NCBI GenBank assembly: GCA_045593985.1
Contig: JAZNXR010000002.1
Coordinates: 3,790-67,789, forward strand
Source: Eubacteriales bacterium
GTDB taxonomy: Bacteria > Bacillota > Clostridia > Oscillospirales > CAG-272
DNA: 64,000 nucleotides
Reading direction: 5' to 3'
Of this stretch, positions 1,284 to 63,006 are shown piece after piece. The notes below the pieces were generated by a model that saw nothing but the letters and a program-made list of their open reading frames with translations, did no database searches and was not told the DNA's origin. The position numbers and the translations under genes are program-made. Every line of letters starts with the position of its first letter. The stretch's first letter is position 1.

Positions 1284-1309
1284 GTAGGGTGCGACGTCCC
1301 CGACGCACC
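1284..1309 (+). repeat. R1 GTAG-headed hairpin (REP-like)
   Basis: GTAG GGTGCG A CG TCCC CG A CGCACC: 6-bp stem, A.A mismatch, CG clamp, 4-nt loop. Confidence 0.8.
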
Positions 1310-1419: not shown

Positions 1420-1445
1420 GGGCTGTCGTGGGCGCCAGCCCCTAC
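1420..1445 (-). repeat. R1 GTAG-headed hairpin (REP-like), reverse orientation
   Basis: Reverse complement is GTAG GGGCTG G CG CCCA CG A CAGCCC. Flanked by GAACAACATGGCGAA, as is the copy at 1525. Confidence 0.8.
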
Positions 1446-4911: not shown

Positions 4912-5175
4912 ATGACAAGCTACAACAACGAAAAGGAAAAAACAATAACCTTCTCGATAAGAGACGAAAAGGACATTGAGATCAAGAGAGTTCTTCAGAC
5001 CGTTTATTCCGCGCTCAGCGAGAAAGGCTATAACCCGATCAATCAGATCGTAGGCTACATCCTTTCGGAGGATCCGACCTATATCACCAACCACAAAAAC
5101 GCAAGAGCGTTGATCTGCAAGGTGGATAGAGACGATATCCTCAACTCTCTCGTTCGCAGCTACCTCGGCATCTGA
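4912..5175 (+). CDS. ireB: IreB family regulatory phosphoprotein (UPF0297)
   Basis: 87 aa; VYSALSEKGYNPINQIVGYILSEDPTYIT is the family signature; SD GGAGG. Confidence 0.85.
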   Translation: MTSYNNEKEKTITFSIRDEKDIEIKRVLQTVYSALSEKGYNPINQIVGYILSEDPTYITNHKNARALICKVDRDDILNSLVRSYLGI

Positions 5176-5177
5176 CG

Positions 5178-6032
5178 GTGAACAAAAAGAGAACCGTCCT
5201 TCTCGGAAACTTCGACGGTGTTCATATCGGCCATCAAGCCTTGATAAAAAAAGGCCGCAGTGAAGCCGATAAAAGAGGAACGCCTCTTACCGTCTGGACG
5301 TTTGATACCCTGTTTTCTCCTGCCCTGACGGCGAAGGATGACAGGGTGGAGCTTCTGCGCTCATACGGCGTCGACGAGGTTATCATCGAAAGCTTCGAGA
5401 GGGTAAAAAATCTGACTCCCGCTGAATTTGTAAGCAATATTCTTCACACCGAGTTGTCTTGCGAGCTCTGCATCTGCGGCTATAATTATACCTTCGGATG
5501 CGGCGGCATAGGCGATCCACAGCTTCTTCGGGAGCTGTGCTCCGAATGGGGAATAGATGCAGAAATTATCGGGAGAGTAACGGTTGACGGCGGCGACGTT
5601 TCCTCGTCAGCAATAAGAAAAATGCTGACAGACGGTGACATTGAGGGCGCAAATAAGCTTTTCGGCAGAAGCTATTTTCTTCGGGATACAGTAAAAGAGG
5701 GAAATAAAAAGGGACGCAGCGTCGGAATGCCGACGGCAAACATTTATCCGAGCGGACTCTGCCTGCCGAAAAACGGCGTTTATGCAACTATAACGGTCGT
5801 AAACGGAAAAAGGCTTCCTTCGGTGACGAACGTCGGACTTCGTCCAACCGTGAACGATGGCAGAGGCGTCTCTGTCGAAACACATATTATTGATTTTGAA
5901 GGCAACCTTTACGGCAAGGAAATCAAGATCGAGTTCCTTTCCTTTCTTCGCCCCGAGCAAAAATTCGATTCGCTTGACGAGGTGCAGAATGCGGTAAAGG
6001 GCGATATCGCAAAGGCAAAAACATTATTTTAG
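5178..6032 (+). CDS. ribF: bifunctional riboflavin kinase / FMN adenylyltransferase
   Basis: GNFDGVHIGHQ nucleotidyltransferase motif and C-terminal riboflavin kinase PTANI..THI motifs. GTG start, position uncertain. Confidence 0.9.
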   Translation: MNKKRTVLLGNFDGVHIGHQALIKKGRSEADKRGTPLTVWTFDTLFSPALTAKDDRVELLRSYGVDEVIIESFERVKNLTPAEFVSNILHTELSCELCICGYNYTFGCGGIGDPQLLRELCSEWGIDAEIIGRVTVDGGDVSSSAIRKMLTDGDIEGANKLFGRSYFLRDTVKEGNKKGRSVGMPTANIYPSGLCLPKNGVYATITVVNGKRLPSVTNVGLRPTVNDGRGVSVETHIIDFEGNLYGKEIKIEFLSFLRPEQKFDSLDEVQNAVKGDIAKAKTLF

Positions 6033-6049: not shown

Positions 6050-7483
6050 ATGAAGCTATTTAAGACGGCAAAAAGAATAATAACAGTCATCATGGCGTTT
6101 GCCATGGTGCTTGCCGTCATGCCCTTGACCGCAAAGGCGGCACCTGCGCCCGAGCTTGTTTCGAGCGATACAGCAATGCTTTACTGTGTCGAATCGGACA
6201 CCGTGCTTTTCAACCATAACGGTGACGTAAAAACAAAGCCCGGAGTCCTCATAAAGCTGATGGTGGCGCTTGTCGCAATTGAGGAAGCGGAAAACAGAGG
6301 TATGACGCTCGACAGTGGCTTCACGGCATCAAGCAAGGCTATCCGCGATGCCCGAGGAAAGCACATCTCAATGAAAAGCGGAGAGGTTTTCCGTCTCCGT
6401 GACCTGATTGCCGCAATGCTTCATGCAGATGCAGACGATGCTGCACACGTTATCGCCGAGGGAATAGCAGACAATTATAAAAACTTTGTCGAGCTTATGA
6501 ATCATAAGGCGAAGGATCTCGGAATGACAAGCACCGAGTATTTTTCGGTGACGGGCACGGAGGACGAAAAGAGCTATACAACAGCCGCCGACCAAATGCT
6601 CCTCGCCGCCTATGCGATCAGAATACAGGAGCTATCCGATATAGCTCGCCAGATAAGAGCCGTAATACCGAAAACGAACAAATCCGCAGCTCGCTACTAC
6701 GGTACGACAAACTATCTTATCAGCTCAAGAGTCAATGCCGATTATTATCTTTCGACAGCAACGGGCTTTATTGCGGGAAATCAGTCGATTGCCGGCTACT
6801 GCGGCATTGTAACCTCACGCCGTGACGGACTGAACTACATAGCGGTAATTACAGGCGCACATACGACAAGAGTCCTCGTCAAGGACGAATACGAATCGGT
6901 GGACGAGAACGGAAAGCCGATCACCGTCCCCGCAGAATATAAAACGATATACCACGGCTTAAGCGAGGGCAGAGAGCTTTTGGTCTGGGGAGAAAAGAAT
7001 TTCGGCTATGTAAAGGCGCTCAGCTCCGCAACCCCGATAGTTGATATTCCTGTCAAGCTTGGCGCAGGAACAGACAGAGTGGCGCTTATGCCGCAAAGAG
7101 ATATAGAAATATTTGTTTCGGACGACACCGACATAAAAAACGAGGTAAGCTACAGCTACGTGCTCAATACCGAGTCACTTACCGCGCCGATCAAGGCAGG
7201 ACAAGTCGTCGGAACTCTCTACGTAACCTATAAGGGCGAAAAGATCGGTGAGGTGCCGCTTGTCGCAAGAAGCAATATCGAGCGAGACGGCTGGCTCACG
7301 GTCGGACACAAAATAAAAGAGCTGATATCAACGCCGTTTTTCATCGTGCTTCTCGTTCTTACCGTATTTGCCGCAGTATTTTACGTAATTATGACGGCGG
7401 TAAAAAGGCAGAAAAAGGAAACCGAGAGAAAGCTTCTCGCCTCGCGTGAGCGCAGATATCTCGGAACTGGCAATAAAAAATGA
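6050..7483 (+). CDS. D-alanyl-D-alanine carboxypeptidase (S11 serine peptidase, PBP5-like) with C-terminal TM anchor
   Basis: Signal peptide, PBP5-like N-terminal domain, C-terminal TM helix. Confidence 0.8.
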   Translation: MKLFKTAKRIITVIMAFAMVLAVMPLTAKAAPAPELVSSDTAMLYCVESDTVLFNHNGDVKTKPGVLIKLMVALVAIEEAENRGMTLDSGFTASSKAIRDARGKHISMKSGEVFRLRDLIAAMLHADADDAAHVIAEGIADNYKNFVELMNHKAKDLGMTSTEYFSVTGTEDEKSYTTAADQMLLAAYAIRIQELSDIARQIRAVIPKTNKSAARYYGTTNYLISSRVNADYYLSTATGFIAGNQSIAGYCGIVTSRRDGLNYIAVITGAHTTRVLVKDEYESVDENGKPITVPAEYKTIYHGLSEGRELLVWGEKNFGYVKALSSATPIVDIPVKLGAGTDRVALMPQRDIEIFVSDDTDIKNEVSYSYVLNTESLTAPIKAGQVVGTLYVTYKGEKIGEVPLVARSNIERDGWLTVGHKIKELISTPFFIVLLVLTVFAAVFYVIMTAVKRQKKETERKLLASRERRYLGTGNKK

Positions 7484-14812: not shown

Positions 14813-14951
14813 GTAGGGACAGGCGTCCTCGACTGTCCGTGCGGGATAAATGAATCTTTATTCAACGCAAACGTTCAAATATTTCCGTATAAATTAACCG
14901 TTTTGATAAACCAAAACGTGGTAACGGACGGTCGAGGACGCCCGTCCCTAC
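14813..14951. repeat. R1 inverted doublet (REPIN-like): two GTAG-headed hairpins, 87-bp spacer
   Basis: 14813-14838 is GTAGGGACAGGCGTCCTCGACTGTCC. Reverse complement of 14926-14951 is GTAGGGACGGGCGTCCTCGACCGTCC. Confidence 0.85.
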
Positions 14952-23552: not shown

Positions 23553-23720
23553 CCGTTCCTGCGAGATCCCGATGCCACAAGTGGCATCGCCCTACGGGTT
23601 CGACTGCATCCCGCCGTGTCATTCTGAGTGTAGCGAAGCGGAATCGAACGGCGAAGCCGCGCGAAGTGCAACGAAGCGGAATCTCGGCGGGATTACGCTC
23701 AGGATGACACGCAGGAACGG
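23553..23720 (+). repeat. R3 element (one 96-nt head unit, core, tail) bounded by 11-bp inverted flanks
   Basis: About 98% identical to the unit at 62832-62927. Flanks CCGTTCCTGCG/CGCAGGAACGG. Fills the mnmG-rsmG spacer. Confidence 0.85.
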
Positions 23721-36675: not shown

Positions 36676-36863
36676 CGCCGTCTTGCCTTCCCCTGAGGGG
36701 AAGGTGGCCGAGCAAGGCGAAGCCGCGCCGAGGTCGGATGAGGTGGATCAAACTTTAAAAATACGATTATGGCAAATTAGTTGCTTCACCTTCGGAACAC
36801 CTCATCCGTCTGCTCCTGCGTCGCAGACACCTTCCCCTGAGGGGAAGGCAAGAAAACGTGGCG
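36676..36863. repeat. R2b inverted doublet (two roughly 68-nt arms, 52-bp spacer)
   Basis: Left arm is CGCCGTCTTGCCTTCCCCTGAGGGGAAGGTG..GGATGAGGTG. Reverse complement of the right arm is CGCCACGTTTTCTTGCCTTCCCCTCAGGGGAAGGTG..GGATGAGGTG. Confidence 0.85.
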
Positions 36864-40034: not shown

Positions 40035-40910
40035 TTATACCGTTATGGTATGAGTGTTCGTATAAACGCCCATTGGCTGAAGGGTGATAATGCCTTCCTT
40101 CTTCCTTATATCGTGATGGTCGGCATGAGCGTGGTCGGTCAGCGACGTCCAAGGCTCAATGCAGAGGAATTCCGCACCGGGCTCGTGCCAGAATGCGAGA
40201 TAGTCGCAGTCGGGATATTCGACCTTGACTGATCTATCGGTTATGCGGTTGCGGAGAACGACTTCTTTCGACTTCAGCTTTCTGAAAATAAGCGTGTCGA
40301 GCTCAAAATACTTTTCGTATATCGAGAAGCAGTCGACGTTCTTTGCAAACGTCTTTGTTTCGTCGATAACGAGAGGGCCTTCAAGAAGTATCGCATCGAG
40401 ATCCTCCTTGTTCGGGAAAATGATGTCATATTCCTCAACGCCGCCGGGAGTTGCATACGCTTCGTGCGCACCGACGGAGAAGTACATTGTGTCATTCGTC
40501 AGATTATTTACTCTGTACTCGACCTTGAGCGAGCTTCCGAGAAGCGTAAAAACTGCACGGAACTCAAACTGATAAGGATACACGGCGAGCGTATTATCGT
40601 TGTGAGTATAGAGCAGAGTGACGGAGGAATCGGTCTTTTCTTCAACGGTAAATTCGCTGCCTATGAGGAAGCCGTGCTTGCGCATATTGTAGGTCTTTCC
40701 GTTCAGAACATAGTAGTTATCCTTCGTTGAGCCGATGCAGGGGAAAAGCACGGGCGCAGTTTTTCCCCAGAATTTAGGATCGCCGCACCAGATGTATTCG
40801 GTGTCGCCCTTTTTCAGGCTCTTTATCTCGGCACCGAGCTCGTTAATATTGCAGGATAGAAGTTCGTTTTTGATCGTTATCATGGTGTACCTCGTATTAA
40901 ATGATTGCAC
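40035..40910 (-). CDS. aldose 1-epimerase family protein (LacX-like mutarotase)
   Basis: Length and PVLFPCIG..HGF and FSVGAHEA segments typical of the family. Confidence 0.8.
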   Translation of the reverse strand: MQSFNTRYTMITIKNELLSCNINELGAEIKSLKKGDTEYIWCGDPKFWGKTAPVLFPCIGSTKDNYYVLNGKTYNMRKHGFLIGSEFTVEEKTDSSVTLLYTHNDNTLAVYPYQFEFRAVFTLLGSSLKVEYRVNNLTNDTMYFSVGAHEAYATPGGVEEYDIIFPNKEDLDAILLEGPLVIDETKTFAKNVDCFSIYEKYFELDTLIFRKLKSKEVVLRNRITDRSVKVEYPDCDYLAFWHEPGAEFLCIEPWTSLTDHAHADHHDIRKKEGIITLQPMGVYTNTHTITV

Positions 40911-40951
40911 TGGAAAATTTTAGATATTTAAGGTATTTTTGTGACTTAGTT

Positions 40952-41089
40952 GTAGGGGGCGACGTCCTCGACGCCCCGTTGCAACGTTTGAAATCTTAAG
41001 ACCGTTTCTCACTGTTGCATAAATGTTTATAATTATACAAAAAAGATACATTGCTTTTAATGCGGGGCGTCGAGGACGTCGCCCCCTAC
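40952..41089. repeat. R1 inverted doublet (REPIN-like), 27-nt perfect arms, 86-bp spacer
   Basis: GTAGGGGGCGACGTCCTCGACGCCCCG at 40952, and its exact reverse complement ending at 41089. Confidence 0.9.
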
Positions 41090-41152
41090 GATGACATTGT
41101 GAAATTTCGATAAATGAGTGAACGGTTTGAAGCGTTTATGAAACAAATGTTG

Positions 41153-42253
41153 TTACAAGAGAGCCGTATATACTTCCTCTCCGCCGTTTACGTAGACCTC
41201 GGTCAGGTATCCGTCACGGAGAATTTTAATATCGTTTATTTCTCCCTCGTAAATGACGGGATTGCGACCTTGACGCTCAATGGTAAAACCGCCATCGACC
41301 ATTTTCACCGAGGAGTCGGTGTCGGTCAGAAGATGCCTTATCTCCTCTACGGGATAGGCACTTATCCTGCCGTTTTCGAGCTTGACCTCTCTCGGCACCG
41401 ACATACAGCCAACGTCCTTTTCTGCATAGCCACCGTATGCCCAGCCGGGCGCCCATGAGATGAGGATATTTCTGCCCTTGTGGTCGCGGAATATCTGTCC
41501 GGCATATTGGTCGGGGCCTTTATCTACCTCAGAGGAATATTTGACCTCGAATTTTCCGTCATCGAATCTGCCGTACATTATTTTGAAATAGTGACGGCTT
41601 TCAAGCGGACAGACCGATGCCGAAAGGAGATATAAGCCGTTTTCGGCTTCGGTAAGCGACGGACATTCGCAGTATCGGCAGTTTTCCCACTCTGCCATAA
41701 TTCCGAGATAATCCCAATTATAAAGGTCGTCGCTCCTATACAGAAGCAGGCGTCCCGTTTTCGTTTCGGGGTTTCCCGACGCCATTACGCAGTAATATTT
41801 TCCGTTGATATAAGCGACCGCAGGATCCCGAAAGGCGGGGCCGCCGTCGGACGGATAGTGCTTTATTACGGGATTGTTTTCGTATTTGACGAAATTGACT
41901 CCGTCGGTTGAATATGCGACGCACATCGTCGATTCGGTTTCGCCCTCGCCCCTTTTAATTGCTGCGTAGAAAAGATAAAGAACGCCGTCCTTGACGATAG
42001 CCGTTCCCGACCAACAGCCGTCCTTATCGTAATCCTTATCGGGATAAAGCGCAACGGGAAGCTCCTCGTAGGTTATAAAATCCTTCGTTCGCGCGTGTCC
42101 CCAGTGCATGGGCTGCTGCCAGGGCTTTTCAAAGTCGGGTGCGTGCTGGTAGAAAATGTGGTAATAACCGTTAAAATATACAAGCCCGTTCGGATCGTTT
42201 ACCCAGCCTTTTTTAGGGCGGTAGTGATGCTTTAATTTTTCGGAATAGTTCAT
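41153..42253 (-). CDS. glycoside hydrolase family 32 (beta-fructofuranosidase / sucrose-6-phosphate hydrolase-like), short form
   Basis: WVNDPNG, FRDP and CECP catalytic motifs. Start moved to MNYSEK, which has SD AAGGAG. Confidence 0.85.
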   Translation of the reverse strand: MNYSEKLKHHYRPKKGWVNDPNGLVYFNGYYHIFYQHAPDFEKPWQQPMHWGHARTKDFITYEELPVALYPDKDYDKDGCWSGTAIVKDGVLYLFYAAIKRGEGETESTMCVAYSTDGVNFVKYENNPVIKHYPSDGGPAFRDPAVAYINGKYYCVMASGNPETKTGRLLLYRSDDLYNWDYLGIMAEWENCRYCECPSLTEAENGLYLLSASVCPLESRHYFKIMYGRFDDGKFEVKYSSEVDKGPDQYAGQIFRDHKGRNILISWAPGWAYGGYAEKDVGCMSVPREVKLENGRISAYPVEEIRHLLTDTDSSVKMVDGGFTIERQGRNPVIYEGEINDIKILRDGYLTEVYVNGGEEVYTALL

Positions 42254-42497: not shown

Positions 42498-42523
42498 GTA
42501 GGGACAGGCGTCCTCGACTGTCC
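42498..42523 (+). repeat. R1 GTAG-headed hairpin, solo copy
   Basis: Identical to 14813-14838. Followed by GGTGCTCCCACGC, as the copy at 1284 is followed by GCTGCTCCCACGC. Confidence 0.85.
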
Positions 42524-42577
42524 GGTGCTCCCACGCTCTGTACATTCTCTATTAAAAAAGATAGATCGAACGTCGTC

Positions 42578-42622
42578 TTGCCTCGCCCTTCGGGAGAGGT
42601 GCCCCGAAGGGGCGGAGAGGGT
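42578..42622 (+). repeat. R2 half element (first two hairpins only)
   Basis: TTGCCTCGCCC-TTCG-GGAGAGGTG CCCC-GAA-GGGG CGGAGAGGGT. Confidence 0.8.
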
Positions 42623-45411: not shown

Positions 45412-45486
45412 GGCGACATAGCCAAGTGGTAAGGCCACGGTCTGCAAAACCGTTATTCTCCAGTTCAAATCTGGATGTCGCCTCCA
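45412..45486 (+). tRNA. tRNA-Cys (anticodon GCA), CCA encoded
   Basis: Acceptor GGCGACA/TGTCGCC, 3-bp D stem, anticodon loop CTGCAAA, T-loop TTCAAAT. Confidence 0.9.
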
Positions 45487-45527
45487 AAACAAAAGAGCAC
45501 CCAATTGGGTGCTCTTTTGTTTTGGAG
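45482..45527 (+). terminator. 21-bp perfect hairpin overlapping the tRNA-Cys 3' end
   Basis: CTCCAAAACAAAAGAGCACCC-AATT-GGGTGCTCTTTTGTTTTGGAG. The left arm starts with the tRNA's CTCCA. Confidence 0.7.
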
Positions 45528-62735: not shown

Positions 62736-63006
62736 GAGATCCCGATGCCACAAGCGGCATCGCCCTACGGGTTCGACTGCGTCCCGCCGTGTCATTCTGA
62801 GTGAAGCGAAGCGGAATCGAACGGCGAAGCCGAGATCCCGATGCCACAAGTGGCATCGCCCTGCGGGTTCGACTGCGTCCCGCCGTGTCATTCTGAGTGT
62901 AGCGAAGCGGAATCGAACGGCGAAGCCGCGCGAAGTGCAACGAAGCGGAATCTCGGCGGGACTTCGCTCAGGATGACAAGGCGGGACTCCGCTCAGGATG
63001 ACCGCG
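62736..63006 (+). repeat. R3 element with a tandemly duplicated 96-nt head unit and a duplicated tail
   Basis: Units at 62736-62831 and 62832-62927 (period 96, a few mismatches). Core at 62928-62953. Two tails GGCGGGAC..CGCTCAGGATGAC at 62954-62977 and 62980-63002. Confidence 0.9.

Follow-up and report, generated by a model that had tools for sequence, protein, structure and literature searches.

The 138-bp doublet of inverted repeats located between a GH32 glycoside hydrolase gene and an aldose 1-epimerase (mutarotase) gene in the 64-kb stretch of DNA analysed here, which will be referred to as the window, is probably (we estimate roughly 0.8) a REPIN, a non-autonomous mobile element of a GTAG-REP/RAYT system that is widespread in Oscillospirales. 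This reading is based on the hairpin structure of the arms, the dispersed family to which they belong, a class of doublets of fixed size, polymorphism of the insertion site, a homologous unit at another locus and a family of RAYT genes with identical arms. A clear and abundant GTAG-REP/REPIN family is thereby placed in uncultured gut and rumen Clostridia. As an element the doublet is ordinary and of a known kind, though its host group is new; the repeat found within the transposase genes is the more interesting part of the system.

Structure of the doublet and its hairpin family

The two arms of the doublet are 27 nt each and 100% complementary, exactly as the initial annotation had claimed, and no comparable inverted repeat was obtained in 100 dinucleotide-preserving shuffles. 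The enclosed segment is AT-rich, as had been noted as well, and separates the arms by 84 nt; the length of 86 bp given previously is reached only if each arm is counted as a REP unit of 26 nt. In the left arm, a GTAG head is followed by a 6-bp stem (GGGGCG/CGCCCC) that closes a 10-nt loop (ACGTCCTCGA), and the unit ends with a 3′ G. Fold predictions resulted in −10.1 kcal/mol for a single arm as ssDNA hairpin and −47.8 kcal/mol (z = −12.2) for the whole doublet as ssDNA, and a stem of at least 27 bp (z = −7.4) was predicted for the coding-strand RNA. On the coding strand, the stop codon of GH32 is followed by 63 nt, the doublet, another 68 nt and the ATG of the epimerase gene. The Pfam matches of both neighbours agree with the earlier placement of the element between a mutarotase and a GH32 gene (Table 1). 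The only Rfam match of the doublet was a spurious one to a plant miRNA precursor (24.5 bits versus a cutoff of 245), and no Rfam family could be assigned.

Table 1. Positions of the doublet, its neighbouring genes and further family members in the window.
Feature	Positions	Strand	Evidence or remark
Left arm, REP unit GTAGGGGGCGACGTCCTCGACGCCCCG	40952..40978	+	Sequence, hairpin fold, family covariation
Spacer, 84 nt, AT-rich (27% G+C), without coding potential	40979..41062		64% identical to the spacer of the L002 copy
Right arm, REP unit, exact reverse complement of the left arm	41063..41089	-	Sequence
Whole REP doublet (probable REPIN), 138 bp	40952..41089		One long hairpin predicted, as ssDNA or RNA
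GH32 glycoside hydrolase, upstream gene	41153..42253	-	Pfam PF00251, E = 1e-75
Aldose 1-epimerase, downstream gene	40035..40883	-	Pfam PF01263; own GAGGT ribosome-binding site
Patch of ~350 bp: last 84 nt of GH32, intergenic region, doublet	40884..41236		~97% identical to L124
Second doublet, 139 bp, stems GGACAG (14813) and GGACGG (14926)	14813..14951		Upstream of HPr kinase gene
Singlet REP, stem GGACAG/CTGTCC, between SDR and GH32 genes	42498..42523	+	Pattern match
Singlet REP, stem GGTGCG/CGCACC, in the four-hairpin cluster 1284-1551	1284..1309	+	Pattern match
REP variant, stem GGGCTG/CAGCCC, loop GCGCCCACGA, same cluster	1420..1445	-	Pattern match

REP units are characterized by a G+C-rich hairpin with a 5′ GT[AG]G at its foot (PMC2817692, PMC3733652, PMC6006769). 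Both arms show this anatomy, being short imperfect palindromes with the tetranucleotide at the hairpin foot, and the doublet as a whole comprises two inverted REPs which are separated by a short spacer and together form one long predicted hairpin. Collecting units with a pattern that constrained the 5′ half and the loop only yielded 61 distinct 27-mers, in which all four Watson-Crick types occur at each of the three variable stem pairs. These pairs were Watson-Crick paired in 57, 55 and 52 of the 61 sequences compared to 27, 19 and 25 in shuffles (maximum 37), and sliding the partner by one or two positions reduced the paired cells from 337 to 82-131 of 366. Perfect stems, with 19 different stem sequences, were present at 142 of 150 family sites; of the same 150 sites, 96% have a pyrimidine at position −1, in front of GTAG, and 83% a G at position +27. 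Structural constraint is evident in both arms, the GTAG head and the loop of the hairpin being conserved.

The family is widespread. Scanning one genome per species detected the motif in at least 120 stretches, and nearly all of the matches listed derive from MAGs and isolates of Oscillospirales from gut and rumen, the hosts including Acutalibacteraceae, Oscillospiraceae, Gemmiger, Faecousia and Ruminococcus flavefaciens. The few single matches in high-G+C Actinobacteria look like chance. For further searches the element can be represented by the signature YY-GTAG-stem-RCGTCCYCGA-stem-G.

Within the window, seven strict family units were identified along with variant GTAG hairpins, all of them between Pfam-supported genes; the units keep the GTAG head and the loop, and stem changes between them are compensatory. 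One pair of units forms the doublet at 14813, the existence of which had already been reported and which has 29-nt arms with 93% complementarity. Heads-outward pairs fall into a size class of 137-139 nt, to which belong both window doublets and those at the loci L002, L093, L027, L079 and L074. The stems of the two arms are the same or nearly so in all of these except L074, where the arms are unlike, and the length of the spacer is about 85-87 nt between 26-nt units. The spacers are mostly unrelated in sequence (26-45% identity). Among the doublet spacers, the alignment of which had been proposed as a check, one related to that at 40952 was found, in the L002 copy. The segments said to be shared by the two window spacers (AACGTTCAAAT and AACGTTTGAAAT) did not withstand comparison with chance, as p was approximately 0.8 in the stated orientation and a marginal ~0.03 in the opposite one.

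Target-site duplications like those of an IS-derived MITE were not apparent, there being no consistent direct repeat around the doublets. The doublet at 40952 is flanked by TTAGTT in front of GTAGGG and by GATGAC behind CCCTAC, the flanks of the L002 copy differ from these, and the AAAT present on both sides of the doublet at 14813 may be due to chance.

Several other repeats were observed in the course of the analysis. Positions 1284-1551 of the window harbour a BIME-like cluster, situated between genes for a xylose-isomerase-like TIM barrel protein and a DUF5722 protein, in which four GTAG hairpins of three loop types alternate in orientation. In L025 (4360-4575), a tandem array with a period of 63 nt contains one family REP per unit, with three exact pattern matches and a fourth, variant hairpin upstream. 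A second palindromic family, CGTCTTGCCTnnCCC...GGTG, was found in the window at 266-280, 36679-36693, 36841-36855 (minus strand) and 42574-42588; with six matches compared to 1.0 expected, it may represent the CGTC-tagged REPs of Di Nocera et al. A third hairpin family with a GTAG head, GTAGGGCGATGCC(A/G)CTTGTGGCATCG, occurs at 23570-23595, 62743-62768 and 62839-62864, in each case on the minus strand, and has a GCAG head in one copy. Finally, a perfect 46-bp palindrome consisting of CTCCAAAACAAAAGAGCACCCAA and its own reverse complement without a gap is located at 45482-45527 and is kept in L124 (5244-5287).

The GH32-epimerase junction in related genomes

The junction between the two genes is polymorphic among relatives. 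It measures only 8 bp in L001 and 19 bp in L002, in both cases without an insert (epimerase 87% and 84% identical, respectively). The P0007 lineage, represented by L124-L127 from four JGI samples, has a 269-bp junction carrying the same doublet in the same orientation. In the P0011 lineage (L128-L131) the junction is 176 bp long and contains a different palindromic insert. This insert, at 3580-3755 of L128 and present in L129-L131 as well, reads GAGGGATTGTA...TACAATCCCTC with other short hairpins; L128 also contains a gene for a large serine recombinase upstream of GH32 (135-1829). A metagenome scan for further orthologous loci was uninformative, yielding only a relative with 32% identity.

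A homologous copy of the doublet was detected in L002 at a different locus, between tgt and mutL. Its arms are identical to those of the window doublet, and alignment of the two spacers gave a score of 24 compared to −16.8 ± 4.7 in shuffles (maximum 3), the similarity being orientation-specific. The homology ends at the GTAG/CTAC heads, and relative to local transcription the L002 copy has the opposite orientation to the window doublet. Since the L002 copy is homologous right up to the heads, the unit of ~138 bp behaves as one entity at different loci. Both site polymorphism at an orthologous junction and a homologous unit elsewhere were observed. The singlet at 42498 in the window, too, lies in a segment missing from L124. 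The earlier proposal that the whole unit of roughly 140 bp is mobile is hence supported by this copy, not by the doublet at 14813 which had been cited for it and to which the similarity is not significant.

No other copy of the ~125 bp of intergenic DNA surrounding the doublet was found in any fetched locus. A larger mobile unit including these flanks was considered and rejected, as the flanks are single-copy in the fetched loci and the homology with L002 stops at the heads. Because the ~125 bp match no repeat found, the original insertion event cannot be delimited. Doublets of this kind create insertions within operons, here between a fructan-degrading GH32 and a mutarotase.

The geometry of the element had led to the alternative suggestion of an inverton, in which a site-specific recombinase would flip the 84-bp spacer between the arms and thereby switch a promoter for the epimerase gene. 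Perfect inverted repeats around a short AT-rich core do fit such an arrangement, and the TATAAT-like hexamers mentioned earlier are indeed present on both strands of the spacer, as part of TTAAAA-17-TATAAT on the minus strand and TTCTCA-16-TATAAT on the plus strand (each 10/12; three promoter-like sites found versus 0.9 ± 0.9 expected). However, these hexamers are not conserved in the homologous spacer of L002, and that copy is oppositely oriented relative to local transcription. The arms belong to a dispersed hairpin family which also occurs as singlets and inside transposase genes. The spacer has the same orientation in the window and in four independent metagenome assemblies, which report the majority state only. 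The recombinase or RAYT that was to be sought nearby did not turn up either: no recombinase domain was found in the ORFs of the region 28.4-54.8 kb (~12 kb around), the genes of which are housekeeping or metabolic and include no transposase, and no RAYT gene in the 64-kb window. We therefore regard an inverton as extremely improbable. Of the two options named in the initial annotation, REPIN-like element or inverton, the first is favoured by the family, the site polymorphism and the RAYT-like genes with identical arms, whereas the second is disfavoured by the single orientation, the lack of a recombinase and the unconserved hexamers.

Comparison of the window with L124 revealed a patch of high identity (Table 1), the counterpart of which is located at 9647-10000 in L124. 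Across GH32 and the epimerase gene, the two sequences are ~84% identical, and identity falls to an unusually low 62-72% immediately upstream of the patch. The patch includes 163 nt without any difference. Within the 269-bp intergenic region, nine differences were counted between the window and the L124 lineage: none in the 54 arm positions, three in the spacer and six in one flank. The simplest reading of these sequence data is that the patch arose by a recent recombination that carried the element between lineages. The occupied site which the window and L124 share would accordingly be explained by recombination between lineages rather than by independent transposition, since it is shared via the patch. 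Such doublets would mark recombination patches between species. As judged from the alignment, with differences at 9 of 269 intergenic positions, the element is older than the split of the two lineages. In view of the shared patch, it is not young at the GH32-epimerase site, and its arms stayed perfect. The identity of the arms had previously been ascribed to a young or homogenised doublet, which is not the best reading: given the absence of differences in the 54 arm positions and the recurrence of the 27-mer in other species and in transposase genes, constraint on the arm sequence is the more likely cause.

The same patch bears on a further explanation, according to which the doublet is a regulatory structure of the host, its stem or an internal promoter uncoupling the expression of GH32 and epimerase, with mobile ancestry being incidental. 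This is consistent with the predicted stem in the coding-strand RNA, with reports that REPs raise mRNA stability and cause transcription termination (PMC6006769), and with the patch itself, which is ~97% identical compared to ~84% for the flanking genes and shows no change in either arm. The patch nevertheless extends over synonymous sites at the 3′ end of GH32, and recent recombination therefore fits better than selection on structure. Moreover, two related species lack any insert at the junction and a third has an unrelated one, no terminator-like site (a G+C-rich hairpin with a T/U run) was found within 40700-41350, and no Rfam family is assigned. A primarily regulatory origin thus seems unlikely, and it is not exclusive of the explanation as a REPIN.

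RAYT-like transposases with an in-gene repeat

Several of the fetched loci carry the motif in frame inside ORFs of ~170 aa, which have the form ...YDYS.GAYF.T.CT...VG.GVLD.P...Y.IMPNH.H...SRT..PT...FKRFCNK..G..IWQR...DH.IRN..DY..H..YI..NP. These ORFs match Pfam Y1_Tnp (PF01797) with 26.2 bits versus a cutoff of 23. Their best NCBIfam match is REP_Tyr_transpos (NF047646; E = 4e-18), the 65.6 bits being below the cutoff of 80. The closest solved structure is that of TnpA_REP from E. coli (4ER8, E = 2e-7), compared to E = 0.17 for the IS200-type enzyme 2XM3. The family comprises at least 1,544 clusters at E ≤ 1e-10, and among the best 120 of these the HUH and the catalytic Tyr motifs are both kept in 115. 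The proteins thus have the two motifs of a TnpA_REP and are closer to it than to IS200 transposases.

Each RAYT-like gene contains two inverted GTAG hairpins with heads outward, spanning 185-205 nt overall. In the gene at 6001-6516 of L132, the pair (6127-6153 and 6294-6320, 140 nt apart) is the very 27-nt repeat of the doublet at 40952, and it brackets the codons for VIMPNHIHIMM, which contain the HUH motif. In-frame hairpin pairs around the HUH motif were likewise found in L117 (3237-3427), L005 (4328-4512) and L021 (5205-5407). Translation of the arms of the 40952 doublet yields VGGDVLDAP and, in frame 2, GASRTSPPT. VGGDVLDAP is present in 46 of the best 120 homologs, 41 of which also contain GASRTSPPT. 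Other matched pairs of arms encode VGTGVLDGP/GPSRTPVPT, VGVDVLDDP/GSSRTSTPT and VGADVLDGP/GPSRTSAPT, and over the 120 homologs the peptides encoded by the two arms co-vary in the manner of reverse complements. The peptide signature VGxxVLDxP ... GxSRTxxPT can be used in searches for the enzyme. The elements generate spurious ORFs such as 'VGDGVLDVP'.

With regard to genomic context, one assembly was found to contain both a RAYT-like gene (L028) and an extragenic REP (L017) with an identical 26-mer. No RAYT gene was detected in the window by tblastn, the only matches being over the hairpin (E ≥ 0.4). The REPtron layout, a RAYT gene flanked by its own REPs, was not observed, as family hairpins are present only inside the gene in L132, L005 and L021; in L117, a GTAG doublet with different loops lies ~370 bp downstream of the RAYT-like gene. 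Distant REP pairs (0.9-1.6 kb) were also inspected for enclosed RAYT genes and dismissed, as those in L041 and L023 enclose unrelated ORFs and that in L076 is associated with no more than a truncated RAYT fragment, located at one end.

Additional forms of the gene were noted. L021 contains tandem RAYT-like paralogs (5018-5524 and 6110-6622) which are 55% identical; in the second, the same two positions are taken by another hairpin type (GTAGGGGCAATTCACGAATTGCCC, encoding ...AIRESPLQ), which is also extragenic in L003 and L007. A degenerate copy on the minus strand of L028 (6679-7286) is apparently frameshifted at the second hairpin. Another one, on the minus strand of L076 (5094-5369), is reduced to an N-terminal fragment and stops shortly behind the first hairpin.

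The existence of such a truncated fragment, together with a gene-internal repeat that has identical arms and the same heads-outward geometry, might suggest that the doublet is the relic of a RAYT gene between GH32 and epimerase, with the arms as its internal hairpins and the spacer as the shrunken interior of the gene. However, none of the doublet spacers is significantly similar to the 140-nt interior of the gene (best p = 0.024 in 12 tests), and the doublets are therefore not recognisable deletion derivatives of a RAYT gene. Furthermore, tblastn detected no N- or C-terminal RAYT remnants in the doublet flanks, and a class of 137-139 nt with unrelated spacers in several genomes is unexpected under independent decay. 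Such an origin is very doubtful.

Returning to the REPIN explanation, a RAYT of the VGGDVLDAP/GASRTSPPT type encoded elsewhere in the genome would recognise the GTAG head and the hairpin on ssDNA and, by analogy with TnpA_REP of E. coli (PMC3333891, PMC3479197), would cleave beside the conserved pyrimidines that precede GTAG on the 5′ side. The doublet might then be moved or copied in one piece, in line with what has been proposed for TnpA_REP of E. coli and the REPINs of Pseudomonas. We infer mobilisation in trans since the window is devoid of a transposase gene. Transcription from GH32 presumably reads through the doublet, and the 27-bp stem may punctuate the GH32-epimerase transcript as a barrier or a processing site. 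Such an effect on the transcript would be a side effect of the insertion, not the reason for the existence of the element.

It is conceivable, though we consider it only a tentative proposal, that the in-gene repeat has a function and is not just a tolerated insertion, so that REPIN and transposase would be nested and the arms would co-evolve as a pair in more than a hundred homologs. The repeat could act as a cis-regulatory hairpin throttling expression of its own gene, as a self-recognition site or as the master copy of the intergenic 138-bp REPINs. If true, the nested repeat would mean a closer coupling of element and enzyme than is described for any REP/RAYT system. The matched in-gene repeat offers a tractable test of how a domesticated transposase and its substrate stay coupled.

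Comparison with known systems

REPIN/RAYT systems have been studied mainly in Proteobacteria, as long-lived, vertically inherited populations of sequences within genomes. The reference cases are the REPINs and RAYTs of Pseudomonas fluorescens and the BIMEs of E. coli (Bertels and Rainey 2011, PMC3116915; Ton-Hoang et al. 2012, PMC3333891). In common with these, the element described here has two inverted REPs with a short spacer forming one long hairpin, extragenic copies dispersed across Oscillospirales and a 5′ GTAG at the hairpin foot, and the associated enzyme is a Y1 HUH transposase closest to TnpA_REP. In contrast to them, the hosts are Gram-positive Clostridia of gut or rumen and not Proteobacteria, the spacer is longer and conserved in length (85 ± 1 nt) though not in sequence, many stem variants are combined with one loop, and the transposase gene lacks flanking REPs in the loci examined.

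By description, the enzymes resemble tnpA_REP subclass 2.4, equivalent to RAYT group 4, which is found mainly in Cyanobacteria and Bacteroidetes and in which the variable region behind the HUH strand often contains REPs in frame (Quentin et al. 2018, PMC6006769). The REPs of this subclass have three G-C pairs at the foot of the stem, and the insertions are 'generally between HuH and Y' (PMC6006769). The present system shares the long, GGG-footed REPs, the in-frame REPs after the HUH strand and the occurrence in scattered phyla, but differs in having a matched, co-varying and often perfect inverted pair with one arm before and one after HUH.

The arms also resemble the superfamily of GTAG-tagged REPs (Di Nocera et al. 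2013, PMC3733652), in which the GTAG tag is located at one end of a short G+C-rich palindrome and the repeats are often oppositely paired, situated between unidirectional genes and in some cases inside ORFs. That survey includes no families from Clostridia or Firmicutes, and REPs inside the RAYT gene are not described in it (PMC3733652). Our literature search for REPs in Ruminococcaceae or Oscillospiraceae yielded nothing relevant. With the invertons of gut bacteria, the doublet has in common inverted repeats of similar length around a short AT-rich segment with promoter-like hexamers; unlike invertons, its arms are hairpins of a multi-copy family, no invertase is encoded nearby and a single orientation is found in five assemblies. 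Compared with these published descriptions, three features appear to be new, namely the host taxon, the class of doublets of fixed size and the matched pair of repeats which brackets the HUH motif and is identical to the arms of an intergenic REPIN.
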